Part shown: in pieces, positions 5,237 through 63,925 of the stretch
Layout: each line of letters opens with the position of its first letter
Position numbering within the stretch: position 1 is the stretch's first letter
Origin: an uncultured Candidatus Bathyarchaeia archaeon
GTDB taxonomy: Archaea > Thermoproteota > Bathyarchaeia > 40CM-2-53-6
Reading direction: 5' to 3'
Assembly: GCA_964601325.1 (NCBI GenBank)
Contig: CAZRNA010000001.1
Span: forward strand, 4,042-68,041
Length of the DNA stretch: 64,000 nt
Position numbers and translations under genes: made by a program
Notes under the pieces: generated by a model
What the model saw: only the letters and a program-made list of their open reading frames with translations
Told to the model about the DNA's origin: nothing
Database searches by the model: none

Positions 5237-5310
5237 AGTCGTCTTCAGCAGGCCTCCTTTGTTCTATGGTTGCAGAAAAACGGGAGGCCGGAGTAGGCGA
5301 AATCTTTCGC

Positions 5311-7825: not shown

Positions 7826-7834
7826 GAGCCGCGA

Positions 7835-8776: not shown

Positions 8777-8861
8777 TGCCGAGCATTCTGGTCACTCTCG
8801 GTCCGTCCAAGCTTGGGGAATGCGTCGTCTGCGTGGATTGAAGCCTCAACGCTTCGGAAGC

Positions 8862-9407: not shown

Positions 9408-9483
9408 TCAGTCTGCCTTCTTCTTGCAGCATTCCGCTGCGGCTTGGTAGAGACGACGCGTGGGCGAGTTGCTACACAGTCCT

Positions 9484-10044: not shown

Positions 10045-10066
10045 ATCACGTTCCCCTGTCCGGTTG

Positions 10067-10567
10067 TTACTTCTTGTCCTCAGCCCTTCCTTCTCTTATG
10101 GCAGCTCTGGCGGCTTCGATCGCGGCCTTCTTCTTCACTCCGACCGCTCGGCCCTTGCGGCCTGTGCTCTTGGTGCGTTGGCCTCGAACCTTCAGGCCAA
10201 GCGAGTGCCGCACACCTTTCCATGTGCGTATTTCCTTGACGAAGTCAATGTCAGCCTTCGTCCTCAAGGCTAGGTCGGGGCCGATCAAGTGTGCATCTCT
10301 GCCTGTCTCAAGATCCTTCCTGCGATTGAAAAGTCTTGATGGAAGGTTGTATTTCGCAGGATCCGTTACCACGTCCTCTAGGCGGTCAACGTCATCTTCT
10401 GAGAGGTTGCCAACTCGCATCTCGGCTTTCAGCTCCGCGGCCTTCACAACTGCAGCTGCAAAGCTCGGGCCTATTCCGCGAATCCTCGTAATACCGTAGA
10501 CGAGCTTCTTGGATCCGTCTATGTCGGTACCTGCGACACGGACGATGTGCCTAAACTCTCTGGACAT
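10067..10567 (-). CDS. rps13: 30S ribosomal protein S13 (uS13)
   Basis: 'FRHIVRVAGTDIDGSKKLVYGITRIRGIG' is the S13 signature. The start is probably the internal Met ('MSREF'). Confidence 0.85.
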   Translation of the reverse strand: MSREFRHIVRVAGTDIDGSKKLVYGITRIRGIGPSFAAAVVKAAELKAEMRVGNLSEDDVDRLEDVVTDPAKYNLPSRLFNRRKDLETGRDAHLIGPDLALRTKADIDFVKEIRTWKGVRHSLGLKVRGQRTKSTGRKGRAVGVKKKAAIEAARAAIREGRAEDKK

Positions 10568-12669: not shown

Positions 12670-13311
12670 GTGCTCTACGCGGTTCCCCACCGAAGGACCG
12701 ATAAAAGCCCGCTGTCAGACTACGTCTCGAAGAGTAATCGACAGAGCGGCTTCATGTTGGCAAGCAGGTTCAGAACAGCCGTGCACGCATCGGCCCTATT
12801 GATCCCGTTCATCGCGGAGGTCACATCAAAATCCACAGTCGCCGTGGCTCTTGTAGCTACGACCGCTGCTTACATTCTGTCGGAGGTACTACGTCTCAGA
12901 TCCAAGAACGTCCCATTGATCACGCGATTCACACTGGCAATGAGTCGTGAGGACGAAAGTCCCCGTTTGGTCGTTGCACCGATCTACCTAGCAGTTGGTG
13001 TGGTTCTCTCTCTGCTCGCTTTTCCGAAGAACATCGCATACGCTTCAATCACCATCGTCGCGGTGGGCGACCCGGTGGCATCGTACCTTGGCAGAAAGCT
13101 CGGTCGAATACATGTGAGGCAGAAGACGTTGGAGGGTTTCGCTGGCGGCTTGATTGTTTCATTTGCGGCCGCGTTGCTCTGGGTTCCTCCTCATCTTGCG
13201 CTGGTAGGCTCAATTGGTGGGATGTTATTCGAGCTTCTCGGACTCCTTGATGATAACCTTACGATTCCAGTTGGTGCGGGGTCAGCAATGCTGATCACGA
13301 GCATTCTGTAG
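12670..13311 (+). CDS. CTP-dependent polyprenol/phosphatidate transferase-kinase family membrane protein (CDS / dolichol kinase / DUF92-like)
   Basis: 213 aa with about 6 TM helices. 'VGDPVASYLGRKLGRIHVRQKTLEGFAGG' resembles the C-terminal signature of the cytidylyltransferase / dolichol kinase family. Confidence 0.4.
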   Translation: MLYAVPHRRTDKSPLSDYVSKSNRQSGFMLASRFRTAVHASALLIPFIAEVTSKSTVAVALVATTAAYILSEVLRLRSKNVPLITRFTLAMSREDESPRLVVAPIYLAVGVVLSLLAFPKNIAYASITIVAVGDPVASYLGRKLGRIHVRQKTLEGFAGGLIVSFAAALLWVPPHLALVGSIGGMLFELLGLLDDNLTIPVGAGSAMLITSIL

Positions 13312-16984: not shown

Positions 16985-18319
16985 ATGAAGAGGACTCAGG
17001 TCAAAGTACTCGCTCTCTTCGTCATCCTCTGTTCCCTCACTCTGTTAGGTCAGATGCCACGCGAAACACTTGCTCAAACAGGAGAGATTGAGGTTGATAA
17101 CCTTCGAGGTGTGCAGTACCAAACCTCCGAGGACGTGTTCTCCAATGCAGCGGTGAACGGCACATTCTATTGGTGGGTTCCGGTGAAGAACCAGGAGAGC
17201 GGCACCCTGAACGGCGCCACTGTCGAAGTCGTGACCCGATTACCTTCTACATGGTTTGAATATTTCGGGCCAGATCCCAACTCAACTCTTCAGAAGGGAG
17301 ACGATTATCTCTACACATGGAAGATGGGGTCGATAGCTCCTCGTGGCGAGCAGGGGATTTCGCTTGGAAGCAAGTCCGTAGAGAAATTCGCACCCGGATT
17401 CGACTCTCGAAGAGTTTTGATTCCTGGCATAATCGAGTCCCAGATTTCGAACCAGACAGTTGTTGTGTCGGTCACACCGCGTGAGAGTCTGCAGCGAATC
17501 GAGGCTGAAGTATATCTTGAGCAAGGCACTGGTGTTTCGGCGGCTTTCATTCTCTCCACCGCGCTCCCCAAAGTTGACTGGACTTGGGATGATGGAAGAG
17601 GGTTAGGTTGGGGGCTCGATAATCCCAAACCTAATCATGAATACACGTTCAGAGTCATGCTTCAGCTGAAGAACCCAACCTACCCGAACAAGATGTTCTA
17701 CAAGCCCAGGGTTACGGTACGTTCGATAGAAGGGAGAGAGCAGACGAGATCTAGAGGCTCATCTCTCGTGGCCAAGGATGAGGTTCTAGGTACAATCACG
17801 TACTCTCTGCCTGGTAATCATGAATGGTTCTACTACCATGATCACAGGAAGGAGGTTGTGCATCGGTACTCATTAGGGGTGCCGTTCGTTGCGTTGATGA
17901 TTGATAGTCCGACAGCTTTGTCGGTGGTGAAAGGGGTTATGAACATCTCAGCCTCAGCTGTCTCTTCGAGTGGAACGGTACTGGCCATGCAGTGTCGAAT
18001 TGATGGAGGAGAATGGATGCCCTTGAACCCCGGTAACGAGACTCAGAAGGAGTATGGATATGGGGCTCTGGGTGCAAAGTCAGCCTATGTCGGCTCGATC
18101 GACTGGGATACCACTCCCTTGCCGGACGGCCCCCATGAAATCACTATTAGAGCAGAAGACTCAAACGGCATAGCCGACAACAAGACCATCACCGTCATAG
18201 TCGACAACTCTGGGCCAAGGTTCGTCGGGTACTCGCAGATCATCAACTTCGTCTATGTCGTCGCAATAGTCATCGGAATTGTCGGGTTAGTATGGATAGT
18301 GGACAGAAAACGTCGATAG
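16985..18319 (+). CDS. Secreted/cell-surface protein with N-terminal signal peptide and C-terminal TM anchor ending in RKRR
   Basis: 'MKRTQVKVLALFVILCSLTLLGQ' is a signal peptide. The C-terminal 'VYVVAIVIGIVGLVWIVDRKRR' is a TM anchor. It is divergent from the AAA gene. Confidence 0.45.
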   Translation: MKRTQVKVLALFVILCSLTLLGQMPRETLAQTGEIEVDNLRGVQYQTSEDVFSNAAVNGTFYWWVPVKNQESGTLNGATVEVVTRLPSTWFEYFGPDPNSTLQKGDDYLYTWKMGSIAPRGEQGISLGSKSVEKFAPGFDSRRVLIPGIIESQISNQTVVVSVTPRESLQRIEAEVYLEQGTGVSAAFILSTALPKVDWTWDDGRGLGWGLDNPKPNHEYTFRVMLQLKNPTYPNKMFYKPRVTVRSIEGREQTRSRGSSLVAKDEVLGTITYSLPGNHEWFYYHDHRKEVVHRYSLGVPFVALMIDSPTALSVVKGVMNISASAVSSSGTVLAMQCRIDGGEWMPLNPGNETQKEYGYGALGAKSAYVGSIDWDTTPLPDGPHEITIRAEDSNGIADNKTITVIVDNSGPRFVGYSQIINFVYVVAIVIGIVGLVWIVDRKRR

Positions 18320-27558: not shown

Positions 27559-28419
27559 ATGAGCCTAATGAAACGACTCCAGCTTGACGAAAAAATCGAT
27601 CTCAGGCTTGCCTCAAGACTCGCGCTCCGATTCTACGCTGACACTAGACCACACACTCTTCAGACAGGAGGACTTCACAAGGGTGCCATTGTTGTCTGTA
27701 ACGGTACAGAACTTGTCGAAGAGGCACTTGGAATCGGTGTCCCGGTGTGCAGGTATCAGGACGGTGCGCGATTCTCACTTAGCGCGGACACATTTCTCGA
27801 CGATTCCAACGAGAATCCAACACTGATCAAGATCTATGACATGAATGGGATAGCTTCGAAGAGATTCCGCGGATTGCCAATACGACGCGGAAGTTCCCTT
27901 GCGAGCCTTCTCAAGGCCCTGGAGAAAAGATATCGCGTCTTGCACAGGTTCAGAACCGTAGCAACCGTGATGCTGGACATTCTTAGTCTGTTTGGGATGA
28001 GAAATGAGTACTTAGAGTCCCCCTCAAAAGGACAAGTCGCGGTTACTTATCGAAGGAAGGGTAGAGGCTTGCAGATCGAGGCCACTCTCGACGAACTGTC
28101 CCGCGAAGGTCTACAGAACATCGTCTTTGCGAATGAGCAAGGAGGAAGGCTATTCAATGAATATGAGGATTCAACCGGGATCAGGCTTCATGACACACAA
28201 ATTGAACCTTGGCGAACGACCCAAGCAGAGTGGGCGAGTCTGCGTTCCCGAGTGTTCGGTGTTGGATTCAGACTAAACCGGCCAAGCGGGTGGCTCATGG
28301 TGAGGGGAAGAGAGGTCGTCAGAAACCGCATTTCTTGGTCCGGTCTAGACTTGTCTTGTGGGGAGTTGCCTCAGAAATTGGAGTATCTGGTAGAGATAGC
28401 CGGAGAATGTGTTAGTTGA
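27559..28419 (+). CDS. Hypothetical protein. The start is probably the internal Met at about 27559, and the gene is cotranscribed with the downstream B12-radical SAM gene
   Basis: The long ORF has a 4-nt overlap (28416) with the next gene. No motifs are recognised. Confidence 0.4.
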   Translation: MSLMKRLQLDEKIDLRLASRLALRFYADTRPHTLQTGGLHKGAIVVCNGTELVEEALGIGVPVCRYQDGARFSLSADTFLDDSNENPTLIKIYDMNGIASKRFRGLPIRRGSSLASLLKALEKRYRVLHRFRTVATVMLDILSLFGMRNEYLESPSKGQVAVTYRRKGRGLQIEATLDELSREGLQNIVFANEQGGRLFNEYEDSTGIRLHDTQIEPWRTTQAEWASLRSRVFGVGFRLNRPSGWLMVRGREVVRNRISWSGLDLSCGELPQKLEYLVEIAGECVS

Positions 28420-29792
28420 CTGACGTTGCTCTCGTCTATCCATACTTTCGGCCACCACGGGATGGATCTCCATTCAGATTTCCTCCTCTGGGACTTGGCT
28501 ACATCGCGTCCCACCTCAGGAATCACGGACTATCCGTGGGACTCGTTGACTGCACCTTCAAATCAGAAGATTCAGTGCTTCGCGCCGTCAGGGGTCTGAA
28601 CCCGTCGATCATTGGAGTCTACTCGATGTTTTCCATGAGCGCATCCACACTTCGCTTGGCCGGACTGTTGAAGGACGACTGCGATCTGCTCGTTGCCGGA
28701 GGCCCGCTTCCCACACTCTTCCCCGAAGACTACCTGAAGGTGTTTGACGCTGTCTGTATCGGGGAAGGAGAGGAAACGATGCTCGAACTCGCAGAAGCAC
28801 AGCTTGAACGACGAAAGCTCTCTGAGGTCAAAGGAATCTGTATCAGAACGGATCACGAGTCGAATACGACGAGCGAATCTATCATACGGACGCCTGCTCG
28901 GCCTCCAATTCATGATCTTGACTCCATTCCATTTCCCTCAAGAGATCTATTCGACAACGCGGAATACAAGGAGTATTTTAGGAGACGTTTCGGTCGTGAA
29001 GAGACTTCAATTATCACAACTCGGGGATGCCCATTTGATTGCGATTTCTGTAGCAGACCTATCTTCTCAAACCAGTTCAGAGCGAGATCCGCAGGAAATG
29101 TGGTCGATGAGCTAGAGCAGATTTCTGAACTCGGGTACGATTCTGTGTGGTTCTCCGATGATTGCTTCACACTAATCCCGAGCAGAGTTCTACATGTCTG
29201 TCGAGAGATCAAGAGCAGAGGCCTTGAACTGAAGTGGGAGTGCCTTTCAAGAGTCGACGGTTTTAGCGTTGACATGGCGAGGGAGATGAAAGCGGCTGGA
29301 TGCGAACGAGTATTCTTTGGAATCGAGTCCGGCGACGATGGAATTCTCAGGCAAATGAACAAACGAATTGATATCGATCAAGCACGCAAGGCCGTCGAGG
29401 CAGCTGCGAAGGCAGAGTTGAGGGCCGCCGCATTCTTCATCGTCGGCTATCCAGGAGAGACTGACTCAACGATACTACGGACGATTAGGTTCGCAAGTAG
29501 GCTTCCTCTCGACTACGCTTCATTCAGCCTTCCGTATCCGATTCCCGGGACCGGTCTCTATGACAAAGTCAAGGATAGACTGCGTGAACGGGATTGGCGG
29601 TATTCAAGTTGGAGACTGATCGACCATTCACTGCTGTATGACTCTGATTTCTCGGAGTTCAAACTGAAGTTCGCGATTGCCAAGGCAGCTATTCAACACC
29701 GAGTGAGGAAGCACGGCGGCAAATGGGGATACAGATTGTTCGGCACGCCCTTCGAAGCGCTTACGGACTTGGCCTTCAGGAGCCTGAGCTAG
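28416..29792 (+). CDS. Cobalamin-binding radical SAM enzyme (class B radical SAM)
   Basis: The N-terminal domain looks like a B12-binding Rossmann fold ('VALVYPYF...LGLGYIASHL...CDLLVAGGP'). Radical SAM motif 'CPFDCDFC' (CxxxCxxC). Confidence 0.75.
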   Translation: MTDVALVYPYFRPPRDGSPFRFPPLGLGYIASHLRNHGLSVGLVDCTFKSEDSVLRAVRGLNPSIIGVYSMFSMSASTLRLAGLLKDDCDLLVAGGPLPTLFPEDYLKVFDAVCIGEGEETMLELAEAQLERRKLSEVKGICIRTDHESNTTSESIIRTPARPPIHDLDSIPFPSRDLFDNAEYKEYFRRRFGREETSIITTRGCPFDCDFCSRPIFSNQFRARSAGNVVDELEQISELGYDSVWFSDDCFTLIPSRVLHVCREIKSRGLELKWECLSRVDGFSVDMAREMKAAGCERVFFGIESGDDGILRQMNKRIDIDQARKAVEAAAKAELRAAAFFIVGYPGETDSTILRTIRFASRLPLDYASFSLPYPIPGTGLYDKVKDRLRERDWRYSSWRLIDHSLLYDSDFSEFKLKFAIAKAAIQHRVRKHGGKWGYRLFGTPFEALTDLAFRSLS

Positions 29793-31087
29793 AGATCGAT
29801 TTCGATAGGCACATTCGGGTGATAGCGTCGAGGATCCGTTACTTGATTCTTCTGAGTGCGGGGATTCAACTCGCGCTCGGCGCCTTCACGGCACACCCCT
29901 ATGATGGACGAGTGTTCATGGCTGCTGGATACTTGGTGGCTCATGGCAATTCGCCCTATGTCCTCACGAGCGTTTCCAGCGTCTTTGGGAATTCACTCTT
30001 CCCCGACCCCGTTCCAGGCATCGGCTATCCTCCTCCTTGGGGCCTAGTATTGGCGTTATCCTATCTTGTCAGCTACAATATTGTCCCTAACCTGATCCTG
30101 TACAACTTCGCCATCAAGATCCCCATAGTCATCGGCAATATCCTTCTGGCTTTGCTAATCGGAAAAATGATCCTCAGCGCGACTTCTGATTCAACCAAGT
30201 CAGCAAACGCAACTCGCTTCATGCTGTTCAACCCATTTGTCATCTACACTACAGCCATCTGGGGACAATTTGATACGCTCAGTGCACTTCTGATGTTGCT
30301 CGCCATTTTCGAACTCACTCAAGGCAAGCGGCGTCTTTCAGCCTTGGCCTTGGGAGGAGCTATTGCATTCAAGTTGATCCCTGTTGTCCTGCTTCCTCTT
30401 CTGATCTTGCACGTAAGAAAACGCGAAAACTGGTTCCGTGCGTTCGAGTATTTTGCGTTCGTCGCTGCCGTTGTTGGGCTCTCATTTTTCCCGTTCTTGA
30501 TCGGTTGGAGTCCCCAACCCATCATCGATAACTGGAACATCCATTTTGTCCGAATCGGGGCGTTCTCGCCGATGAACGTATTACTTCTCCTTGGATTAGC
30601 CGGCGCCACAAATGGATTCAGCTTCCTGGGATTCCTCTGGTTGCCCTCTCTAGCGTTGGTCTACTTCATTCTCATTAGAAGAGGGACCATCAGATCCACG
30701 GACCTTGTGCTTCCAGCTCTCGCCGTGATGTTGGGAGTCTTTCTCACCAGATCATGGGTATCTGAACAGAACCTGAACTTTGTCGTTCCCCTTGTTCTCT
30801 TATCCTCCGTTAGGCAGGGCTGGTCTAAGAAGTGGGTTTCATCTACGTGGTTGCTCCCGCTGATATTCGCAGTGGTCCATACTTCGCCCACGAGCATGCT
30901 CTTCCTAACAGCGCCTCAGCCACTCATAGAACATACCCAACTCCAGCTGCAGCTCTTCTTCACGTCAGAGTTGGGCAGCGTAATACGAGCTTCGATAACG
31001 CTTGTGTGGCTCGCCGTGGGCCTTTCGCTCCTCCGAAAGTCGGTTCATTCCACCGGTCCCTCTCTTTCTGAAAGAATACCACAATAG
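29723..31087 (+). CDS. GT-C fold polyprenyl-phosphate-sugar-dependent membrane glycosyltransferase (DUF2029 / GT87-like)
   Basis: About 12 TM helices with a DUF2029-like N-terminal region. The start is uncertain because the ORF overlaps the radical SAM end by 70 nt. Confidence 0.5.
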   Translation: MGIQIVRHALRSAYGLGLQEPELEIDFDRHIRVIASRIRYLILLSAGIQLALGAFTAHPYDGRVFMAAGYLVAHGNSPYVLTSVSSVFGNSLFPDPVPGIGYPPPWGLVLALSYLVSYNIVPNLILYNFAIKIPIVIGNILLALLIGKMILSATSDSTKSANATRFMLFNPFVIYTTAIWGQFDTLSALLMLLAIFELTQGKRRLSALALGGAIAFKLIPVVLLPLLILHVRKRENWFRAFEYFAFVAAVVGLSFFPFLIGWSPQPIIDNWNIHFVRIGAFSPMNVLLLLGLAGATNGFSFLGFLWLPSLALVYFILIRRGTIRSTDLVLPALAVMLGVFLTRSWVSEQNLNFVVPLVLLSSVRQGWSKKWVSSTWLLPLIFAVVHTSPTSMLFLTAPQPLIEHTQLQLQLFFTSELGSVIRASITLVWLAVGLSLLRKSVHSTGPSLSERIPQ

Positions 31088-31196: not shown

Positions 31197-31730
31197 GTGC
31201 CTCGTTTGAACGACATGTTGCTTGGAGGATCTGGAATGAACGCGAAATCTATGGTAGTTGTCGCGACGCTTCTTGCTATGGTAATCTTGGCTTACAACGC
31301 AAGCGCCTATGCATGGAACTCTTCTCCTCAGATAACGAATTCTCTTGACGGTTCTGGGAACACAGTTCTCACTATCCAATTCGATTTCTCGCAAATGTCG
31401 GATCCGCCCACGGCGAGTCACCACCCGACTGACTTCCAGGTTCGCACCTCTACAGACGGATCTTCATGGACCGAGCAGGCTGTCGTCCACATCACATCGA
31501 TACCGGCAACAACCGTATTCACCGTGACCTATTCTCTCGGGAAAGTCACAGGCGATCTTCAAGCCCAAGCAAGACTCAATTGTAACGTCCATGGATGGAG
31601 TAACTGGGGACCGGACCCGGCAGTCCCTGTTCCGGAATTTCCCTTCGGAATGGTCACTGTGACCTCACTGTTGCTCCTGGTGGGAAGCCTCCTACTGGTC
31701 CGCAGGGAACGCCCAGCGTATTCGTCCTAA
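31197..31730 (+). CDS. Secreted protein with signal peptide and PEF-CTERM-like C-terminal sorting signal
   Basis: N-terminus 'MNAKSMVVVATLLAMVILAYNASAYA'. C-terminus 'PVPEFPFGMVTVTSLLLLVGSLLLVRRERP' has a PEF tripeptide, then a TM helix, then an Arg-rich tail. Confidence 0.45.
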   Translation: MPRLNDMLLGGSGMNAKSMVVVATLLAMVILAYNASAYAWNSSPQITNSLDGSGNTVLTIQFDFSQMSDPPTASHHPTDFQVRTSTDGSSWTEQAVVHITSIPATTVFTVTYSLGKVTGDLQAQARLNCNVHGWSNWGPDPAVPVPEFPFGMVTVTSLLLLVGSLLLVRRERPAYSS

Positions 31731-37032: not shown

Positions 37033-38289
37033 GTGATCTTGACTCGGCGAGTATTGGTTCTCTCGATCATGCTGATCACCGTGATGGCCATGCCTTTTGT
37101 TAGCAGCATCGGAGCGGTCTCTGAACCAAACGTTGTTGTTACGTCGGTGTATTGGGGAACCAACCCGCTAGGGGGCATCTCTGTGCATCCGGGTGACACG
37201 AACATACCCCTGTCGATTGATCTGTCCAACGCCGGAGATGCAGCAGCCCGCGATGTCAGTGCTACGCTTGTGTTGGCGTCTCCGTTCAGCTACGCCTACA
37301 ACGTTAACGGAAGCGAAGTGAACGCTGGAACAGTTGACCAGAGCGCCGGCGATATTCAAGCAGGCTACTCCTTCACTTTGCGGTATGCTTTGACAGTTGC
37401 TTCGGATGCGATTGCGGGGATTCACAGGCTCACGCTCATAGTTGATTACAAGACTGCCAGGGAACTGCTGCCCGTGGAGAAGACCCTCTCCGTGGACGTG
37501 CCCGTGTGGACGGGTGATGTTCGCGTTCAAAACGTCGTGACCGTACCCGCGAAAGTCTACCCAGGCGACAATCAAATCACCGTGAAGGCGTGGCTCGTGA
37601 ACTCGGGGACTGGATCAACGGCCGACTTTCAAGTGCGCCTCGTTCTGCAGGACCCGTTCCAAGCGTCCTCCGGAGGGTCGGACACGTTCTTTCTCGGAAC
37701 GATGCAGCCAGGACAGGTCAGCGAAGCAGACTTCTACGTTGACATCAGCAAATCGGCCCAGTTCGGAAGCTACAACCTCAAACTCGTCACCGTCTCAGCT
37801 GGATCCAGCGGACAGGTGGAGATTGGACAGATCCCGATCTACGTGAGCGAGAAAGTAGTATTCGAAGTCGTTCAGTTGGAGCCTAAGGTTGTTCACGCCG
37901 GCGACTCTGGCGTCAGCATACAAGTAACTATCAAGAACACTGGAACCGTCGCTGCAGATTCAGTTAGGGCACAGCTGATGGTCGGCAACTACTTCTCAGG
38001 AACGCTCACCGACTTCCTCGGGACGATGCAACCAGGCGAATCAAAGACCGCATACCTGACAGTTGACGTAGACTCAAAGGCCACCTCTCAAGTATACAAG
38101 ATGGATTTGCGCCTTGACTGGACCCAATCAGACAACAGCCTCGACAACACTCTCCCAGTGGAACTGCAGGTAGCCTCTGCTGAACTTCCACTGCCATTGA
38201 TTGCAGTGGCCGTCGTGTTGCTCGTGCTTGTAGCTGCAGTTCTCGTTCGCAGAAGAAGAAAGGCTCAAGAACAGAAGCTCAAGACTTGA
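37033..38289 (+). CDS. Cell-surface (S-layer-like, COG1361/CARDB-like) protein with signal peptide and C-terminal TM anchor
   Basis: A signal peptide is followed by repeated beta-rich segments ('DFQVRLVLQDPF', 'DFLGTMQPGE...AYLTVDV'). The C-terminus 'LPLIAVAVVLLVLVAAVLVRRRRK' is a TM anchor. The gene is adjacent to the ABC-2 operon. Confidence 0.5.
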   Translation: MILTRRVLVLSIMLITVMAMPFVSSIGAVSEPNVVVTSVYWGTNPLGGISVHPGDTNIPLSIDLSNAGDAAARDVSATLVLASPFSYAYNVNGSEVNAGTVDQSAGDIQAGYSFTLRYALTVASDAIAGIHRLTLIVDYKTARELLPVEKTLSVDVPVWTGDVRVQNVVTVPAKVYPGDNQITVKAWLVNSGTGSTADFQVRLVLQDPFQASSGGSDTFFLGTMQPGQVSEADFYVDISKSAQFGSYNLKLVTVSAGSSGQVEIGQIPIYVSEKVVFEVVQLEPKVVHAGDSGVSIQVTIKNTGTVAADSVRAQLMVGNYFSGTLTDFLGTMQPGESKTAYLTVDVDSKATSQVYKMDLRLDWTQSDNSLDNTLPVELQVASAELPLPLIAVAVVLLVLVAAVLVRRRRKAQEQKLKT

Positions 38290-41698: not shown

Positions 41699-42904
41699 AT
41701 GGATTCCACAGCAAGGCGCGGCCGCTCCAGCGCGGAGAGCCAAATAATCCTCTTGATTGCAGTGAACGCGCTATTCGGTTTCGCGGTTGGATTCAGCTCG
41801 CCCTCGGTTGCCCCGCTCATAGTCGCTCTTGGAGTGAGCATATCCTTCGTGGGCCAAGCACAGACTGTCGGTGGCTTGGCGACGACGTTTCTACGTCTCC
41901 CAATAGGTGTCGCAATGGACAGAATTGGAAGAAAACCCTTCCTCATTCTTGGCGGCTTGGTGACGCTCCTCGGATTCGTCTCATACTCGTACGCCACGTT
42001 CTGGCTCCTGCTGGGTTCAGGAATAGTGCTTGTCGCGCTTGACTACACAATTCGAGGAACTGCTTCTTCGGCGTCGTTGGGCGACGCCGCAAAGGCTGGA
42101 AGAATCGGCCGAGTATTCAGCCTCGACCTAGGCGTGACAGAATCCGCCGCCACTATCGCCCCGATCTTGGGCGGGTATGTCGCGACCGTGATGGCGGTCC
42201 CATCGCGTTTCATGTTCGCAACATCAGCAGTCATGGTCCTAATCGCGATCGCCGTAGTCTCAATCTCCTACAAACCCGCACCAGTGCAACAGGCACGAAC
42301 GAGAACTGTTGATTCATGGAGGGAGTATGTTCGTGTAGATAAGCGCATTTTGCCCTTGGTAATTGTAGTAGCGCTTGACGCGGCTGCGTGGAGAATCTCG
42401 TTCCCATTCTGGGCGCTCTACATCTTCAAAGAGATGAACGCGACTCAGGAGCAGCTTGGAATCGCCCTAGCCATTTCTGCAGGGATCCCCGCGCTGACCG
42501 GACTGACGCTGGGGAAGAAGCTTGACAAGGCGGGCAGAAAGCCATTCCTGGCCCTGAGCGAATGGAGCTCTATCGGAGCGTTCTTACCACTGTTGCTGAG
42601 TTCGCGACCTGAGTTCGCGTACATCTCCGCAGTCTTTTGGGGTCTTGTCTACAGTCTCTACGTGCCCGCCCTCAACGCCTACGTGGTGGATCATTTTGGG
42701 AGCGAGAGATTCGGGCAGACCTTGGGAACCCTGAGCCTCGTAGCCGGCCTCGCCTCCATAGCCTCGCCCGCGCTGGGAGGCTGGATGTGGGACAACATAT
42801 CTCCGAAATCGCCGTTCATCCTCACGCTAGTGCTGGCCAACATTATCGGCGTGATAATCTGGTTCAAGATCGTAGAAAAGAAAGATGATGCGGCTAGGCT
42901 TTGA
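41699..42904 (+). CDS. Major facilitator superfamily transporter
   Basis: 401 aa with 12 TM helices. 'MDRIGRKP' and 'KKLDKAGRKP' are the MFS D-R/K-x-G-R-R/K loop motifs between TM2-3 and TM8-9. Confidence 0.7.
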   Translation: MDSTARRGRSSAESQIILLIAVNALFGFAVGFSSPSVAPLIVALGVSISFVGQAQTVGGLATTFLRLPIGVAMDRIGRKPFLILGGLVTLLGFVSYSYATFWLLLGSGIVLVALDYTIRGTASSASLGDAAKAGRIGRVFSLDLGVTESAATIAPILGGYVATVMAVPSRFMFATSAVMVLIAIAVVSISYKPAPVQQARTRTVDSWREYVRVDKRILPLVIVVALDAAAWRISFPFWALYIFKEMNATQEQLGIALAISAGIPALTGLTLGKKLDKAGRKPFLALSEWSSIGAFLPLLLSSRPEFAYISAVFWGLVYSLYVPALNAYVVDHFGSERFGQTLGTLSLVAGLASIASPALGGWMWDNISPKSPFILTLVLANIIGVIIWFKIVEKKDDAARL

Positions 42905-42989
42905 CTGACAACATGACTACATGATCCCCGCGGGATGAGGCAGTCCAGCCCTCGTCATTAGCGCCGTATGCGGCTAGGATATTGGACTG

Positions 42990-43658
42990 ATGGAGCCTCA
43001 GGGTTATATTCTACGGCAAGCCCAACATCTAGACGGGACGCTCTTGAAGAGGCAGGACGCGATCAGAGCCATCGTTATCGTCTGCGTGACCCTCGCAGCA
43101 CTCGGGATTCTTGTTCCGGCCATGGCACCGGCAATTACCCCAATGCAGGGACCCGTGACAACCACGGTCACGACGACATATTCTTCTGGTACCACGACGG
43201 CGCAAGTCGTTCTCACATTCATTTTCTCGAACATAACGACGGGTATGACGTATACGTCGTACACAGGCACAACTACGAGCACTGTGCCAACTGTCACGAC
43301 CTACCCCGTGACTGTGACTGTTTCCACGACATCTTGGACTGCAGTGTCAACTCGCACTTGGAAATCGACACTAGGGACGAAGACTGTCCCGTCCACGTCC
43401 ACAACCTTGACGACGGAAACCGTGACCACAACTGGTCAAACGATAGCGACTACGGCGAACCAAACCATAACTTCGACATATTACACGACGACGAGCAACA
43501 TCTCGACGAGCGTGCTTACTGTGACGGGAGCGCCGACGCCTACTCCTCCGCCTATACCCGGTTTTCCCTTGGAATCGATTCTAGCTGGACTTGGATTAGG
43601 CTTGCTGGGCGTGCATCTGGTCTACCGAAATCGCCGAGCAGGGAGGGGACACTCTTGA
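42990..43658 (+). CDS. Thr-rich secreted surface protein with signal peptide and PGF-CTERM archaeosortase sorting signal, tandem copy 1
   Basis: The signal/TM segment 'AIVIVCVTLAALGILVPAMAPA' is followed by more than 120 aa of T/S/V-rich low complexity. C-terminus 'PPPIPGFPLESILAGLGLGLLGVHLVYRNRRAGR'. Confidence 0.55.
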   Translation: MEPQGYILRQAQHLDGTLLKRQDAIRAIVIVCVTLAALGILVPAMAPAITPMQGPVTTTVTTTYSSGTTTAQVVLTFIFSNITTGMTYTSYTGTTTSTVPTVTTYPVTVTVSTTSWTAVSTRTWKSTLGTKTVPSTSTTLTTETVTTTGQTIATTANQTITSTYYTTTSNISTSVLTVTGAPTPTPPPIPGFPLESILAGLGLGLLGVHLVYRNRRAGRGHS

Positions 43659-44272
43659 AGAGACGGGACGCGATCAGAGCCCTCGTTATCGTCTGCGTGA
43701 CCCTCGCAGCACTCGGGATTCTTGTTCCGGCCATGGCACCTGCAATGACCCCCATGCAGGGAGTCGTGACAACCACAGTCACGACGAGCTATAATACGGG
43801 ATACGGTTGGTGGAATTTCACTTTCACATTCATTTTCCACAACAGCACAACATCCACGATATCTACCGCGACGACTACCTCAGGTACGTCCTGGCGCTCA
43901 AGTATCACGTATTACACTACGACCATGGTTTCTCCATCAACCTCTTGGACTACATCCACCACATACAAAACGACCACCACCAGTGGGACCACGATTGTCC
44001 CTTCGACATCCACGACTCGGATAACAACAGGCGCGATTACGACCAATCGAACGATATCGACAACTGTGAGCCAAACGATAACCTCAACATTTCACACGAC
44101 CACAAGCCTAACCACAACGAGTACCTATTCCGTAACCGCGACTACGCCGCCTACTCCCCCACCTATTCCTGGCTTCCCGTTGGAATCGATCTTAGCGGGA
44201 CTCGCGTTAGGCCTACTGGGCGTGCATCTCATCTATCGAAATAGGCGAGCAAACAGGAAACGCTCATCATAA
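43656..44272 (+). CDS. Thr-rich PGF-CTERM surface protein, tandem copy 2 (TTG start after a GGAGGGG SD)
   Basis: The signal-peptide DNA and PGF-CTERM DNA are nearly identical to copy 1, and the middle is diverged and Thr-rich. The annotated 434-aa ORF 42968..44272 reads copy 1 in the wrong frame. Confidence 0.5.
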
Positions 44273-44356
44273 CCGACTTCCAGACCGGGGTCGCCGCGGC
44301 ACCCAAGGACGCTGCACTCCTATACAGCACAGTGTGCGTGGATCATACGAACACAT

Positions 44357-44956
44357 CTACTGGGCGATTTGTTGATAGCACCTGACCGACGGGAACTCCT
44401 CAAGTAGATTGTTCAGCTGACCTCGGAAGAGTGAAGTCGGCTGGGTCGTGAGAAGCAAGAGGAATCTCCCCTTGGCCGGGACCTCATTCTTCTCGTCGCT
44501 CAGTTTCAGCAGATCGTTCCGAATTCGAACCGCCCAGTTCTCTGGAACGACCGGGATGTATTCTATCTCGACTGCGAAGGAGAGCCGCTGTGTGACGTTG
44601 TTCCAAGTGGTGGGAATTGAGGCTGCCCATCCCGCCAATGCGAAATGATCGTTCCTTCCTGTTAGAGACGGTGTCAGCGAGCCGTCCTCGCGCTGCTCAT
44701 ATCTGTTCTTTGTAGGGAAACTGAGAAAAACGTTGCCAAGCGACCCTTTCTTGAAGAGTCTCCCTTTCAGGAGTTGTACCTTCAAGTGGCATCGGATGTC
44801 ATCAGTTGACCAAAAGGACCTTGGGCTTTCCCTGAACTTCCTCATCGTCTTGATTATGGATTTCTCGATAAGCGCAAGTTCCTTCGCGTCTGTCGCTGGC
44901 TTGCTGTTCAACGTTCGGCCACGTCCACGTGCGCGCTCCCACGATCTTGGTTTCAA
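44357..44956 (-). CDS. Hypothetical protein downstream of Clp1
   Basis: 199 aa, basic N-terminus, no motif recognised. Confidence 0.3.
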   Translation of the reverse strand: MKPRSWERARGRGRTLNSKPATDAKELALIEKSIIKTMRKFRESPRSFWSTDDIRCHLKVQLLKGRLFKKGSLGNVFLSFPTKNRYEQREDGSLTPSLTGRNDHFALAGWAASIPTTWNNVTQRLSFAVEIEYIPVVPENWAVRIRNDLLKLSDEKNEVPAKGRFLLLLTTQPTSLFRGQLNNLLEEFPSVRCYQQIAQ

Positions 44957-47280: not shown

Positions 47281-49431
47281 TTGAGCAAAGTAGTTCTTGC
47301 CGGTTGTACGCTGCTTGCACTTCTCATTCTGCCAATTGTTCCGATCACAATAGCTCCCTCGCTCACACTTGGGATGGAGCCAGTAAGGAACCCTGCCGCT
47401 ATGGGGCATGGTGTGGATAGATCCTCGCCTCAAAGCTCAGTGAACATTGGGAAACTGGGTGGTGACTTCAGACTCATTGTGATCCTGGTGGAATTCGCCG
47501 ATATCAAGCACAAGACATCTGCTGATCAAATTCAGAAGTTAAGCGTGGAACGGATGAACAAGTACTGGCTTGAAGTCTCATACGGCCAATTCAATGTCAT
47601 CAGCGACACTGTCGGATGGTTCGAACTAAGTCATGATGAAGCATACTACGGTAGGGACATGAGCCCCAAAGACCCTGGAAGCGATCAAAATGATCTCGAT
47701 GTAGTCGCCGACGCGTGCAAGTTAGTAGGGAACATAGACTTCAACCAGTATCAGTCTATAATGGTGATTTTCGCGGGGCACGGTCAGGATTCAGATGCCA
47801 AGAACACCGACCTGCTCTGGCCGAGCGCATGGTGGGATGGACTTGAGGCGAAATGTGGAAGCAAGACCTTCGCTAACGGAGGATTCGCTCCTGAGGTTAC
47901 GTCGTACGATACGGTCGATTTCGGGGGTGTCACGCACGAATTCGGCCACACAATCAACTTGCCTGATCTCTACGACGCCGGCCCCAACGCTCCCGACTAT
48001 TGGAAGACACGCGTAGACTTTGTGGGCATGTGGTCTCTGATGGCATCTGGCAGCTGGGGTGGGCCTGACGAGGACGGGACAGATCCTACAGGACTTGAAT
48101 CGTGGAGCAGGATCAAGCTTGGCTGGCTCTCAACCGTATCCATCCCCTTGGCCCCGGGCGGGTTCGTCCAGCAACTCAATCAATTAGGCGATACGACTGG
48201 CCCAAGGGCATTGAAGCTACTAGCAGCAAGCGGCAGATACTATCTGTTCGAGGCCAGGGCCAAGGTCGGAGTGGACAAGTACCTACCCGACTCGGGAGTC
48301 CTCATCACGCTCATAGACGAGTCGAGGGATTCGGGACAGGGCATCGTCAAAGTTGTGGACTGCCACCCTGGGACAAGATCCATTGACGACGCGACCTGCG
48401 GAGTGAACGAGTCATGGTCAGACGCAGCAAACAACATCTACATGAAGGTCATTGGGCAACAGGGAACTAGCTACACTGTCGCGTTCGCAAGCAAACCAAT
48501 AACGACTCTGAAGGTATACACAGCCGAGTTTTCATTGACGGGTGTTCCATCTTCAGCTTCTGCAAACGTCACGGTTGACGGCGCAGAATACGCAGAGATT
48601 ACAGGGAGCGAGAGGCTCGTGCTGGTCTTCCCGCTCGGCTCAACTCACACTGTCACGCTCTCCCAGTGTGCCACGGTTGGTGAGGACACGCGTTATTGCA
48701 CAACCGAAAACACGATCGCAGTCGCGACGCAGGGCACCTATTCAGTTCACTATGACACGAAACAGTATAGACTCCTCGTCGAGACACAGCCCTCATTCAT
48801 CGCATGGCCGATTGAGAAATGGTTCACAGCCGGCCAGACTGAGACGGTCGGACCATACGACGAAACTGTACCCGTGAGTGCCGGCATTCGCTACTTCCTT
48901 CCGGGATTGACAGTAGACGACACTCAACTCAAGGAAAGGACAGTGACTTTGCACATGGACCAACCACACATTGTCAAAGTCAGTTACGTTACCCAATACT
49001 TCCTCAAGATTACCTCGGCTTTCGGAAACCCGAAAGGCGAGGACTGGTATACGTCAGGCGACGTTGCCGAATATTCCGTGACTACTCCCTATGGCGTCCT
49101 GATACAGCACTTCTTCGTCTCATGGACGGGCGATGTGACTTCGGCCCAATCAAAGGGAACGCTGACAATGACAGGACCCTATGCAATTGAGGCCAAATGG
49201 CGGGACGACTACACTCAGCTTTGGGTCGCACTGGTTGTGTTGGCTGCGGTTGCGGCCGGATTCTTGGGCTTGAGACACCGCAAGGCAAAGAAGATCACGC
49301 CGACCACATCCGTTAGCGGTGCTCCCACCTCACAGGCAATACCAACAGAATCAGGCTGGTTCTGCATCAAGTGCGGAGCACCTCTTCCTCCAGATTCGAG
49401 CTTCTGCGAGATCTGTGGCTCTCGACAATAG
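47281..49431 (+). CDS. Secreted M6-like (immune inhibitor A-like) zinc metalloprotease domain protein with a C-terminal TM helix and a cytoplasmic Zn-ribbon tail
   Basis: TTG start after a GGGAGGT SD, then a signal peptide. 'VTHEFGHTINLPDLYD' matches the M6 'HEFGHxLGLPDxYD' motif. Near the C-terminus 'LWVALVVLAAVAAGFLGL' is a TM helix, followed by 'CIKCGAPLPPDSSFCEICG'. Confidence 0.6.
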   Translation: MSKVVLAGCTLLALLILPIVPITIAPSLTLGMEPVRNPAAMGHGVDRSSPQSSVNIGKLGGDFRLIVILVEFADIKHKTSADQIQKLSVERMNKYWLEVSYGQFNVISDTVGWFELSHDEAYYGRDMSPKDPGSDQNDLDVVADACKLVGNIDFNQYQSIMVIFAGHGQDSDAKNTDLLWPSAWWDGLEAKCGSKTFANGGFAPEVTSYDTVDFGGVTHEFGHTINLPDLYDAGPNAPDYWKTRVDFVGMWSLMASGSWGGPDEDGTDPTGLESWSRIKLGWLSTVSIPLAPGGFVQQLNQLGDTTGPRALKLLAASGRYYLFEARAKVGVDKYLPDSGVLITLIDESRDSGQGIVKVVDCHPGTRSIDDATCGVNESWSDAANNIYMKVIGQQGTSYTVAFASKPITTLKVYTAEFSLTGVPSSASANVTVDGAEYAEITGSERLVLVFPLGSTHTVTLSQCATVGEDTRYCTTENTIAVATQGTYSVHYDTKQYRLLVETQPSFIAWPIEKWFTAGQTETVGPYDETVPVSAGIRYFLPGLTVDDTQLKERTVTLHMDQPHIVKVSYVTQYFLKITSAFGNPKGEDWYTSGDVAEYSVTTPYGVLIQHFFVSWTGDVTSAQSKGTLTMTGPYAIEAKWRDDYTQLWVALVVLAAVAAGFLGLRHRKAKKITPTTSVSGAPTSQAIPTESGWFCIKCGAPLPPDSSFCEICGSRQ

Positions 49432-59230: not shown

Positions 59231-60481
59231 TCAGCGGTGCCTATTCAATGCCCAGGCGCTCAATGTGATTCCCGGCAACGCCGCCGAGGTGAGCGCTAGC
59301 AAGCTCGTGGACAGCTGCATTAGCAGGTCGAATCTTGTTACCTCTGAAATCACGATCAGAGTTGAAGCAGTGGCCAGCAGCACTAGCGACAATGATACGT
59401 GCTTGAACGTCAGTTTCTTCCGGAAAGCTCGTGAGACGGCAACCGAAAGACCATAGAATGGCAATGCGTAGAGTAACCCGATCATGCTGCCTGTGAGGAC
59501 GCCTGCTACCACGATGGCTCCTTCAGGGCTGAAAGCAAGTGCGGTATGGAGCTGCTGAGAAACCCAGAGAATCCCAATCAGCGGATACAGCACATACCGC
59601 ATGACCGTCCTGAGGTTCTCGTTCGAACTGATCGTCTGAGCAACCTGCGGACTGAACGAGTAGTAGATCAGATTGAAGACCTTCATTCCCTCACCGCCCG
59701 CGTATGTCTGAAGCACGTCGCGATCGCGGAAGTTGCGCAACAGCTGAACCTCAGGACTCAACTCAGATCCATAAGTCGCAGTAGCAATGTAGCAAGCCCC
59801 AAAGCAGTGCTTCATGTAGGGTGTCCAAAAACCGCCGGAACAGAAATAGCCATACTCACACTCGGGTTCTTTGAGTAAGTAGTTGCACGTCCTTATACAA
59901 TTGAGTTCGTTGGGCTTGCATTCTGGACAGCGCTCTGGGTTTGTCTCCCGCTGCCATGCCCCGTTCGTGCATACCTCTCGTGTATTCCATTTCTTCGGGT
60001 CTATCTTACAATTTACCACGTTCCTAGGTGGGTCTCCAGCGTTGCATTGCGGACAGGGCTGTGGGTTTGTCTCTTGCTGCCATTCCCCGTTCTTGCATAT
60101 CTGGCGTGTCTTCCACCCTGTGCCGCCCGGACACCACTCCGTAACTTTGGGTGCTTCCTCAGCACCGCATTGGGTAGACTGCGTTTGCGTTTCAGTCTGT
60201 GTCTCTGTAGGACAGTCCTGTGTTTCTAGAACCTGGACACCGTTGTGGCACACCATTGCTCTCTTCCATGTCTTGTACTCCTGTCCTGGACACCACTCCC
60301 AAACTGACGCTTGACCTTCTATACAGCCCGCTGGTGGGGGTCCCACACTTAGTGGATGAGGCTGTCCAGCGTTGACGTGAACAACATTGGCTCCAATCGA
60401 GACTATGAAAATGACTAGAATCGCAGTGGCGACAAGATAGGACAGACGCACTCCAACGTATCCCCCTTGATAGAACGCCAT
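59231..60481 (-). CDS. Membrane protein with three tandem Trp/Cys-rich repeats of about 40 aa and a conserved 'CxxCYIATATYGS...LRNFRD' module
   Basis: An N-terminal signal-anchor is followed by repeats 'WxWCPGxxxWKTRxxCxNGxWQxETNPxxCPxC' x3. 'CFGACYIATATYGSELSPEVQLLRNFRD' is followed by at least 4 TM helices. Confidence 0.5.
   Translation of the reverse strand: MAFYQGGYVGVRLSYLVATAILVIFIVSIGANVVHVNAGQPHPLSVGPPPAGCIEGQASVWEWCPGQEYKTWKRAMVCHNGVQVLETQDCPTETQTETQTQSTQCGAEEAPKVTEWCPGGTGWKTRQICKNGEWQQETNPQPCPQCNAGDPPRNVVNCKIDPKKWNTREVCTNGAWQRETNPERCPECKPNELNCIRTCNYLLKEPECEYGYFCSGGFWTPYMKHCFGACYIATATYGSELSPEVQLLRNFRDRDVLQTYAGGEGMKVFNLIYYSFSPQVAQTISSNENLRTVMRYVLYPLIGILWVSQQLHTALAFSPEGAIVVAGVLTGSMIGLLYALPFYGLSVAVSRAFRKKLTFKHVSLSLVLLATASTLIVISEVTRFDLLMQLSTSLLALTSAALPGITLSAWALNRHR
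59910..60320 (-). repeat. Three imperfect tandem DNA repeats of about 120 bp encoding the Cys-rich protein repeats
   Basis: The encoded repeats share the W/C/P/N/G skeleton. The antisense ORF 59883..60314 shows the same periodicity. Confidence 0.45.
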
Positions 60482-62629: not shown

Positions 62630-63925
62630 CTAGAACGGAACCAGCTTGATTGGGAACTGCAGAATCATCATGACAAGCAGGCAGGACAGATAGAGGCTCC
62701 TGACGTACGGGTTAATCGAACGATGACACGTCATGCTCGCCACCATTATCGAGATAGGTCCCATCGTTGGCAACATATAGAAGATGTACATGATACGACC
62801 GGCGAATGCTATTGGATACATTATCAGGTATGCCCAGCTCCACCAGACCAGCCCGAAGAGGTCGAGCCTTGCGCGAGTTCTCCAGTAGCTCCAGGCTGAG
62901 AACGCAAGTCCGGGAAGCATCATGTAGATCAGCATCGGATTCATCTCTCCCACATAGTTCACGGTGAGTCCGCTTACTGTGCCGCTGTAGTATTCGATAA
63001 CGTTGCGATTGAATATCCAAAGCCAAGGCGGACAGATGATCCCGAAGGTAGAACTGTTCGAGCTAACGGCAACATACGATCCGTCCAAGTTATAGTGGTC
63101 GACCCTGTATAGGCCCAGCCTAGCGATATTCTGCCACGGAGTCATTTGCCACCAGACCAACATCAAAGCCGAGAGTAGGGCAACTGGTACAGCGAGACCG
63201 AGCAGTACCTTTGCAGCCAGCACAGCTGACTCTCTTGTGATGAGTGTGCGCTTCGAAACGCGTTCGACAGCCAGAAAAGTCATGATGATCGCGATTCCGA
63301 TGACGCCCATCTCCTTGGAGAGCGCCGATAGTCCAATCGCCATTCCAGCGGCAACGTAGCGGCCACGCAGGAAGAGGTAGAATCCGAGCATCATGAATGA
63401 CATCATGAAGATATCGAGCGTGAATATGCGTGAATGAATCAACGTCAGCGTGTCTAGCGAAAGAAAAGTCGCTGCGTAGAACGCGACTTGATCGGATGCA
63501 AGCCTCTTCACCGCCAGATAGAGAAACAGTAGCAGAAGTGTCCCAAAGATCACGCTCGGCAACCTGTACGCGAGCGCATTTTCGCCGAGCGCCAATGCCG
63601 ATATGGCCACAATGAGCTTCGCGAGCGGGGGGTGTCCCGGATATGGATCTGTAAACTTTGGATAGATGTCAGTCACAGGATTGTCTGCGGGGCCGAAAAT
63701 CATTGGCCTGCCAATTATGTTCCTCGCGGCGTTGATGAAGTAAACTTCGTCGAAGACTAGGCCCAAATCCCACGAATCCACACAGGAAGCGGGCTCGCAA
63801 CGAGTTGTGAGTGGGGGAACACCAATGAATGCCAAACGAAGAGCGAGACTCGCGCACAATACGAAAAGAAATAGTCTATCCCAGTGACTGAGTCTCCGAT
63901 GCAAATGAAGGCCGGGCCAAGTCAT
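62630..63925 (-). CDS. GT-C fold dolichyl-phosphate-mannose-dependent glycosyltransferase (PMT/GT39/ArnT-like)
   Basis: 431 aa with about 11 TM helices and a first extracytoplasmic loop containing 'DEVYF' (DE motif). Confidence 0.6.
   Translation of the reverse strand: MTWPGLHLHRRLSHWDRLFLFVLCASLALRLAFIGVPPLTTRCEPASCVDSWDLGLVFDEVYFINAARNIIGRPMIFGPADNPVTDIYPKFTDPYPGHPPLAKLIVAISALALGENALAYRLPSVIFGTLLLLFLYLAVKRLASDQVAFYAATFLSLDTLTLIHSRIFTLDIFMMSFMMLGFYLFLRGRYVAAGMAIGLSALSKEMGVIGIAIIMTFLAVERVSKRTLITRESAVLAAKVLLGLAVPVALLSALMLVWWQMTPWQNIARLGLYRVDHYNLDGSYVAVSSNSSTFGIICPPWLWIFNRNVIEYYSGTVSGLTVNYVGEMNPMLIYMMLPGLAFSAWSYWRTRARLDLFGLVWWSWAYLIMYPIAFAGRIMYIFYMLPTMGPISIMVASMTCHRSINPYVRSLYLSCLLVMMILQFPIKLVPF

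Follow-up and report, generated by a model that had tools for sequence, protein, structure and literature searches.

The gene pair and its features

The window analysed here is the whole 64,000-nucleotide (nt) stretch of contig CAZRNA010000001.1, from an uncultured Candidatus Bathyarchaeia archaeon. On its plus strand lie two adjacent open reading frames (ORFs) that encode paralogous proteins of 204 and 205 amino acids (aa); we term these c1 and c2, for the first and second gene copy. The locus is a conserved two-gene unit for two small surface proteins, and is modest and largely ordinary. The loci and contigs compared with it are numbered L001 to L020. The unit consists of the following elements:

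43002-43011, plus strand: TATA-box-like element GGTTATATTC, located some 40 nt before the start of c1
43032-43642, plus strand: first 611-nt duplication unit, consisting of a 12-nt leader and c1 codons 1-199 and ending right after the ...RNRRA codons
43032-43181, plus strand: c1 side of a gene-conversion tract, whose c2-side partner is 43643-43792
43044-43658, plus strand: c1, TTG start, TGA stop, 204 aa
43044-43133, plus strand: predicted signal peptide of c1
43152-43538, plus strand: Thr-rich ectodomain of c1
43539-43655, plus strand: Pro-rich hinge and sorting tail of c1, with the PGF motif at 43557-43565
43642-43648, plus strand: Shine-Dalgarno-like sequence GGAGGGG within the last c1 codons; its GGAGG core (43642-43646) lies 8 nt before the c2 start
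43643-44253, plus strand: second 611-nt duplication unit, consisting of the leader and c2 codons 1-199
43655-44272, plus strand: c2, TTG start, 205 aa, stop codon at 44270-44272
43655-43744, plus strand: predicted signal peptide of c2
43763-44149, plus strand: Thr-rich ectodomain of c2
44150-44269, plus strand: hinge and sorting tail of c2

The TTG start of c2 overlaps the stop codon of c1 by 4 nt (cTTGA), and both starts stand in the context ctcTTGAAGAG. The overlap and the TTG start of c2 are kept in L005, L006 and L007, where the c1 orthologues also have the same TTG start. An earlier prediction made from the window sequence (the original prediction) had placed the start of c1 at an ATG at 42990. 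The homologous TTG at 43044 is most likely the true start; the ATG was rejected, since an in-frame stop interrupts the extension in L005 and L007, and the apparent conservation of the extension arises because the TATA-like element lies there. A 434-aa ORF that runs across both genes (42968-44272) was also rejected. It is interrupted in relatives, and it is open in the window only because the sequence is rich in Thr codons and lacks stops.

The middle of each protein is a stretch of 129 aa with 42% Thr, 53-58% Thr plus Ser and only four charged residues, joined to the C-terminal tail by a PTPPP hinge. All eight paired copies have a middle of 128-131 aa, with certain aromatic residues and Thr (F61, N63, Y147 and others) positionally invariant across the paralogues; the ectodomain is thus not free low-complexity sequence. 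Tandem Repeats Finder detected no tandem repeats in the middle, which does not bear out its description as mucin-like in the sense of a tandem-repeat mucin. Judging from composition, the ectodomain is probably extended and glycosylated. In their Thr/Ser content, low charge and position between a secretion signal and a C-terminal sorting signal, the two window copies resemble the Ser/Thr-rich stalks of sortase-anchored bacterial surface proteins and mucin-like domains. They differ from these in having no tandem repeats, a fixed length and no functional head domain.

Upstream of c1, the sequence GGTTATAT(T/C)C is found in all five lineages compared, including those with a relocated pair (L006 and L007) and the single-copy locus L008. 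No TATA-like element was found before c2 when upstream regions were compared across lineages. The element is the presumed promoter of the two-gene unit. The GAGGGG before c2 is kept in all four pair-bearing lineages, with the full GGAGGGG found in the window only, and is likely to act as a Shine-Dalgarno site. A TTG start for c2 preceded by this sequence had been proposed originally and is upheld, since the start is kept in the three other lineages. It appears that c2 depends on the c1 promoter and is co-transcribed and translationally coupled with c1. A scan for bacterial promoters and terminators is uninformative for an archaeon.

The C-terminal sorting signal

Both proteins end in PIPGFPLESILAGL(G/A)LGLLGVHL(V/I)YRNRRA (in a longer description, IPGFPLESILAGL(G/A)LGLLGVHL(V/I)YRNRRA), followed by 5-7 residues. 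Both copies show a tripartite layout at the extreme C-terminus, PIPGF-PLESILAGLGLGLLGVHLVY-RNRR, comprising the motif IPGFPLESI, a hydrophobic helix of about 16 residues and the basic RNRR. This agrees with the general proposal that the two genes are tandem duplicates and that their products are secreted and rich in Thr, with an anchor at the C-terminus and a tripartite tail that contains PGF. The tail had further been called a textbook PGF-CTERM signal, and here the models disagree. Neither PGF-CTERM model (TIGR04126 or PF18204) matched the full-length proteins at E<=1 or the isolated tails at E<=10. The sole significant match is to Loki-CTERM (NCBIfam NF033507, cutoff 19.9 bits), which the isolated c2 tail matches at 22.8 bits. 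By curated models the tail is therefore Loki-CTERM-like.

The same tail is carried by many otherwise unrelated proteins. A profile search of 1.84 billion representative proteins gave 92 matches, nearly all through the extreme C-terminus only, in proteins of 37-1282 aa. The pattern P[GE][FYW]PxE[ST] is present in 61 of the 89 representatives examined, and 67 of 76 proteins with such tails match Loki-CTERM (E<=0.01). N-terminally these proteins vary widely, with beta-propeller and beta-helix families represented. A word search with the tail by itself returned just 13 short, fragmentary ORFs. Tails of this kind are also found on 870-990 aa proteins of Bathyarchaeia metagenome-assembled genomes (MAGs), and a scan of species-representative genomes found the signal in Bathyarchaeia MAGs and in Candidatus Methanomethylicus. 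We conclude that the tail is a lineage-wide sorting signal, probably of the Loki-CTERM class, related to PGF-CTERM yet distinct from it by model. The name of the Loki-CTERM model points to Lokiarchaeia, whereas the proteins described here come from Bathyarchaeia and Methanomethylicus. A literature search found no paper on Loki-CTERM and hence no processing enzyme documented there, and nothing specific was found on archaeosortases together with Bathyarchaeota or Thermoproteota.

The best-known comparable system is PGF-CTERM with archaeosortase A (ArtA), as in the surface-layer (S-layer) glycoprotein of Haloferax volcanii. The Thr-rich stretch of the haloarchaeal S-layer glycoprotein is O-glycosylated. 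Both systems have a PGF motif, a hydrophobic helix and terminal basic residues, and in both the cargo is a secreted surface protein with a Thr-rich stretch directly before the signal. In the present case the motif is longer, IPGFP(L/I/V/W)ESI, and has a conserved Glu downstream of PGF; the organism belongs to the Bathyarchaeia and is not a euryarchaeon, and the cargo is essentially a Thr-rich linker with no globular domain. ArtA is described as the enzyme that cleaves PGF-CTERM (bioRxiv 10.1101/2023.06.07.544157).

Several other proteins with C-terminal tails or anchors were noted among these loci. L010, L011, L015 and L016 carry tandem pairs of 870-990 aa proteins with IPGFP(L/V/W)ESI tails (for example L010:4178-7141 and 7472-10093), which may be major proteins of the envelope or S-layer. 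One of these contigs, L011, bears the label 'Candidatus Acidiferrales bacterium' yet has archaeal-type tails, and may be mis-binned. Adjoining the large IPGFP-tailed proteins in L010, L015 and L016 are 184-aa proteins with PEF or PEY tails. The window itself encodes a similar small secreted protein of 177 aa (31197-31730, plus strand; also L005:1502-2011) that ends in PVPEFPFGMVTVTSLLLLVGSLLLVRRER, a second, PEF-type tail with no model match. A 416-aa membrane protein (59231-60481, minus strand) matches CFI-box-CTERM (NF041770) at 75.9 bits (cutoff 40), through internal residues 230-302. Three further secreted proteins of the window have a helix anchor at or near the C-terminus and no PGF-type motif: a CARDB-like protein of 418 aa that ends in ...VLVRRRRK (37033-38289, plus strand), a Big_7-domain protein of 444 aa (16985-18319, plus strand) and an M6-peptidase-like protein of 716 aa (47281-49431, plus strand), in which a cytoplasmic zinc ribbon comes after the transmembrane helix.

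A candidate processing enzyme and the proposed anchoring of the pair

In L013 (Methanomethylicus) and L014 (Bathyarchaeota), a gene of the exosortase/archaeosortase family lies directly beside, and convergent to, a gene for an IPGFPLESI-tailed protein of about 370 aa. Genes for this tail class and for a sortase are also adjacent in L017, L019 and L020, the last being a second contig that carries the L019 gene. The sortases of L013 and L014 score 36.7 and 37.8 bits against the general signature TIGR04178 (cutoff 23). Archaeosortase H (NF041736) and heimdallarchaeosortase (NF045528) are their best named models, with scores of 46-58 bits against cutoffs of 200 and 130; against ArtA they score 27-37 bits (cutoff 75). 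Because these scores fall far below the equivalog cutoffs, the enzymes form an unnamed subfamily. The subfamily has at least 248 homologues, and in a ten-member alignment the Cys, Arg and His of the motifs VK[DE]CTG, NVxRIA and AHYP, respectively, are invariant.

In Bathyarchaeia and Candidatus Methanomethylicus this arrangement is part of a conserved three-gene cassette, in which a DUF350 membrane protein is encoded together with the convergent sortase and the secreted protein of about 370 aa, whose tail reads LEIPGFP(L/F)ESI followed by a helix and basic residues. The cassette is repeated in L017, L019 and L020. Coordinates listed for the cassette are:

L013:10111-10791, minus strand
L014:10115-10765, minus strand
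L017:6001-6630
L019:6001-6549

We favour the reading that c1 and c2 form an old, conserved two-gene operon encoding paralogous 'head-less' surface proteins with a tail of the Loki-CTERM class, processed by an archaeosortase, and that the 5' ends of the two genes have been homogenised by gene conversion. We put its probability at roughly 0.6. Several observations weigh against it. Pfam and NCBIfam scans of essentially all ORFs revealed no archaeosortase in the 64-kb window, nor does one occur in the flanks covered, 9.9 kb on the left and approximately 6 kb on the right. When metagenomes were scanned with the sortase alignment, 65 loci came up, none of them from the JGI (Joint Genome Institute) samples that contain the organism of the window or the L005 and L007 relatives. 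The tailed proteins seen beside a sortase belong to a different cargo family and to other genomes. Against Loki-CTERM, full-length c2 scores 18.3 bits and the c1 tail 15.4 bits, both below the cutoff. AlphaFold2, run with an 11-sequence family alignment, gave no confident model of either ectodomain (pLDDT, the predicted local distance difference test, 40.9 and 40.2, with values above 50 only in the terminal helices). Each protein has only 1-3 N-x-S/T sequons, which are partly conserved, and public gene callers often skip c2 and call a wrong-frame ORF in its place.

The absence of a sortase from the window and its flanks and the low score of the c1 tail would also be expected if c1 and c2 were ordinary single-pass type I membrane proteins, in which the C-terminal helix and the basic stop-transfer sequence form a permanent anchor with no sortase processing. 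Indeed, a helix followed by RNRR is the layout of any type I anchor. The pattern of conservation points the other way, as IPGFPLES is invariant across the family while the helix varies, and a plain anchor would have no need of a conserved exoplasmic motif. Dozens of unrelated proteins carry the same motif at the same distance from the C-terminus, and at the five loci named above the motif adjoins a dedicated archaeosortase-family gene. We therefore regard permanent anchoring as unlikely, while according it some weight. Processing by a sortase and anchoring through a lipid are, by analogy with known systems, the proposed fate of both proteins.

Searches for a sortase extended beyond the profile scans. 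A tblastn search with 10 sortases against the window and L001-L016 gave no match in the window, and ArtA (TIGR04125) was found neither in the 64-kb window nor in the same 9.9-kb and approximately 6-kb flanks. Two multi-pass membrane proteins of the window, one of 181 aa with about six predicted helices (8862-9407, minus strand) and one of 213 aa with at least four (12670-13311, plus strand), have no Pfam or NCBIfam match and are unlike the sortases by tblastn.

An old duplication with converted 5' ends

The pair is an old tandem duplication of 611 base pairs (bp), in which 43032-43642 was copied to 43643-44253. Three families of direct repeats (D1-D3) show a start-to-start spacing of 611 nt throughout and the copies align without gaps, so the length change between copies that had been reported does not exist. 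Similarity between the regions upstream of c1 and c2 starts about 12-15 nt before the TTG. As the breakpoint lies just past the RNRRA codons, the last five codons of c1 (GRGHS) are read from the duplicated leader.

The original prediction took the duplication to be recent, with ends still nearly identical and a middle under diversifying selection, as might be expected of a phage or predator receptor. Some features of the locus favour this. The two copies are 91% identical over the first 150 nt of the repeat and 94% identical over the first 108 coding nt, as predicted (more than 90%), the middle evolves fast (see below), and the locus varies between species: among close relatives whose flanks are about 92% identical there is either a pair (window, L005) or one gene of another type (L008), and the more distant L009 has a longer single gene. 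The 3' ends, which were also expected to exceed 90%, are only 77-78% identical, and the middle is 59% identical.

Paired c1 and c2 genes with TTG starts and the 4-nt overlap occur in three diverged loci, L005, L006 and L007, each found on the contig of a homologue; L005 shares synteny with the window. Identity over the middle and 3' parts sorts by paralogue type and not by genome. The c1 orthologues are 80-88% identical in the middle and 92-99% in the 3' part, and the c2 orthologues 65-87% and 88-92%, whereas c1 and c2 are 57-60% and 73-77% identical in every genome. The c1 orthologues form a clade with a bootstrap of 1.0 in a tree made without the 5' end. Synonymous divergence (dS) between the paralogues is 0.76-0.88 in the middle and 0.96-1.24 in the tail, several times the 0.15-0.35 found for flanking genes between the window and L005 or L008. 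Within-genome paralogues are closer than orthologues only over the first 110-150 nt and not over the whole gene. The shared orthology, together with paralogue dS far above that of the flanking genes, shows that the duplication took place well before these species split, and the c1/c2 split is older than the divergence of the four lineages that have the pair.

The near-identity of the 5' ends is the product of gene conversion over about 110-150 nt. In the four genomes, c1 and c2 of the same genome are 94.4%, 99.1%, 93.5% and 99.1% identical over the first 108 coding nt; over the same segment the window is 83-88% identical to other genomes. Both copies of one genome share lineage-specific residues, such as AMAPA in the window, VCVIL in L005 and QGAIRG in L007. 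The edges of the tract are sharp. The L007 copies are identical from -9 to +103 and the L005 copies have one mismatch from -7 to +107, with abrupt divergence thereafter in both, and the window tract extends to about +133. The proportion of synonymous differences (pS) within genomes is 0-0.21 in the 5' segment, against 0.54-0.61 in the 3' part. Bootstrap values for the within-genome paralogue as nearest neighbour are 0.76-0.90 for both window copies, L005_c1 and L007_c1, and lower (0.11-0.68) for L005_c2, L007_c2 and both L006 copies. The 5' segment thus groups by genome and the remainder by paralogue, as in concerted evolution, and the high 5' identity is a consequence of conversion, not of recency.

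The gene family is very small: 5.8 billion proteins yielded nine clusters of it, and the 1.84 billion representatives two at 50% identity. Beyond the pair-bearing loci, L008 (10001-10609) has a single gene of 202 aa and of a different type at the same site after a major facilitator superfamily (MFS) gene, with about 92% identity in the flanks. L009 (about 5250-6080) has a single gene of 277 aa with a longer Thr-rich region, also after the MFS gene, with flanks 79-85% identical. Both single genes have a c2-type end (ANRKR) and fall outside the two paralogue clades; such loci either preserve the state before the duplication or result from an allelic replacement. In L008, no alignment with either window copy is possible over the first half of the ectodomain, while identity is about 92% in the flanks and over the last 235 nt.

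In L006 and L007 the pair is relocated. It is preceded by about 185 nt of upstream sequence (L006:9197-9384 and L007:9244-9432) that includes a remnant of the 3' end of the MFS gene (...WFKIEEKKDYAARS*), which indicates that the pair moved as a segment from the MFS-linked site. It now lies directly behind the gene for a beta-propeller-like protein of 754 aa (L006) or 749 aa (L007), which itself scores 23.7 or 24.1 bits, respectively, against Loki-CTERM and ends in P(V/I)PGFPIESILVGL...RRRRR. L007 also has a type I restriction-modification system 7 kb downstream.

Selection on the ectodomain and the tail

The ectodomain is a local trough of identity within collinear DNA of about 92% identity. 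Between species its nonsynonymous divergence (dN) is 0.20-0.28, compared with 0.03-0.05 in the flanking genes, and it gains amino-acid changes 5-10 times faster than the neighbouring proteins. The claim of a fast Thr-rich part is thus confirmed. That of diversifying selection is not, as pairwise dN/dS in the middle is 0.47-0.86 and never exceeds 1, and there are no differences among the four other assemblies that contain the locus. These dN/dS values fit relaxed constraint, or a mix of constrained and positively selected sites. In the 3' part, paralogue dN/dS is 0.10-0.12, with synonymous sites saturated, and the similarity of the tails is due to purifying selection. Considering these values along with the shared orthology, the paralogue dS and the diverged 3' ends, we judge a recent duplication with a diversifying middle to be highly improbable.

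Copy 2 and the N-terminus

Two properties of the locus might suggest that c2 is a decaying or unexpressed duplicate, or that the duplication is an artefact of assembly. In place of c2, the gene calls of four public assemblies (L001-L004) have a His/Asp-rich ORF of 144 or 145 aa (43807-44244), and c2 has a TTG start with no promoter element of its own. The called ORF is a wrong-frame artefact, other frames staying open in sequence so rich in Thr codons; in L005 and L006 the gene calls have c2 correctly, at 205 aa. All four lineages keep an intact c2 ORF, and the Shine-Dalgarno-like site and TTGA overlap are conserved. Between c2 orthologues, dN/dS is 0.15-0.45 for the tail and 0.25-0.47 for the 5' part, showing that c2 is under purifying selection. 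Region 42900-44360 is base-for-base identical in four other independent assemblies (three JGI samples and one European Nucleotide Archive sample), so the duplication is not an assembly artefact. Decay or artefact is largely refuted, and we give it hardly any credence.

Both proteins begin with a signal-like segment (...VTLAALGILVPAMAPA) that reads KRxDAIRA(I/L)VIVCVTLAALGILVPAMAPA. Among 14 sequences, conservation covers K2, R3, R8 and residues 9-24, and P25, P29 and A30 of the A-P-A motif do not vary. By inspection the segment has the layout of a Sec/signal peptidase I substrate, with a basic n-region, a hydrophobic h-region and an A-x-A motif. We consider it a Sec-type signal peptide with a KR n-region, a hydrophobic core and a P-x-x-x-P-A ending in A-P-A, at which cleavage would take place. 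One alternative, a signal of class III (type IV pilin-like) with its cleavage site at IR-A|LVIV, would make the proteins pilin-like subunits rather than Sec/signal peptidase I substrates; it was rejected on family conservation and is scarcely credible. By inspection, R8-A9-L10-V11-I12-V13 fits the FlaFind-type pattern [KR][GA][L..][ILV]3, but the -1 position is not conserved as G or A (V in P0007, I in P0008 and P0009), L009 lacks the basic residue, the residues that form A-P-A are invariant, and a C-terminal sorting signal would be an unusual addition to a pilin.

Glycosyltransferase genes in the window

Two GT-C-type glycosyltransferase genes had been reported elsewhere in the window and proposed to act on the pair. 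Both are present, the second on the minus strand:

29723-31087, plus strand: GT-C gene with matches to GT87 and PIG-U
62630-63925, minus strand: GT-C gene with matches to PMT_2 and PMT

They lie 12 kb and 18 kb from the pair and are not in an operon with it, and no glycosyltransferase gene was found near the relocated pairs in L006 and L007. The link between a PMT-like enzyme and the pair is one of pure proximity. The GT87/PIG-U-like gene is overlapped at its start (29723) by 70 nt by a gene for a B12-binding radical S-adenosylmethionine (SAM) protein (28416-29792), which suggests that the two form a two-gene unit (28416-31087, plus strand).

A model for the pair and its implications

Under the reading of an old, gene-converted operon, a 611-bp tandem duplication gave c1 its new five-residue end from the duplicated leader and left c2 without a TATA element. 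The same event created the TTGA stop/start overlap and the Shine-Dalgarno-like site, through which c2 would be co-transcribed and translationally coupled to c1. Repeated gene conversion has since homogenised the first 110-150 nt, comprising the leader and the signal peptide, while purifying selection holds the tail and the Thr-rich ectodomains diverge. By analogy with ArtA and PGF-CTERM, an archaeosortase-family enzyme whose gene lies elsewhere in the genome would cut the tail close to the PGF motif, leaving the mature protein fixed to the outside of the membrane, probably through a lipid.

A more speculative extension, which we consider possible but rather unlikely, is that the pair is an undescribed component of the Bathyarchaeia envelope. 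The co-translated glycoprotein stalks might act together, for example as a heterodimer that belongs to the glycocalyx or anchors an S-layer, with a membrane-distal half that is swapped or diversified between close species as a receptor for a virus or partner. They would be matured by an unnamed archaeosortase subfamily that recognises IPGFPxESI. If this is true, the system would be the counterpart in Bathyarchaeia and Methanomethylicia of ArtA and PGF-CTERM, and one that is experimentally unstudied.

The pair offers a small, clean example of gene conversion making old tandem paralogues look recent, which calls for caution in annotation. The mis-annotation of copy 2 by public gene callers matters for counting the surface proteins in such genomes. 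The sorting signal of this lineage appears to be the Loki-CTERM variant rather than canonical PGF-CTERM, and an unclassified archaeosortase subfamily at related loci is a candidate for the enzyme that processes it. Almost nothing of the cell envelope of the abundant Bathyarchaeia has been characterised, and the locus provides a concrete, conserved pair of small surface proteins to seek there.

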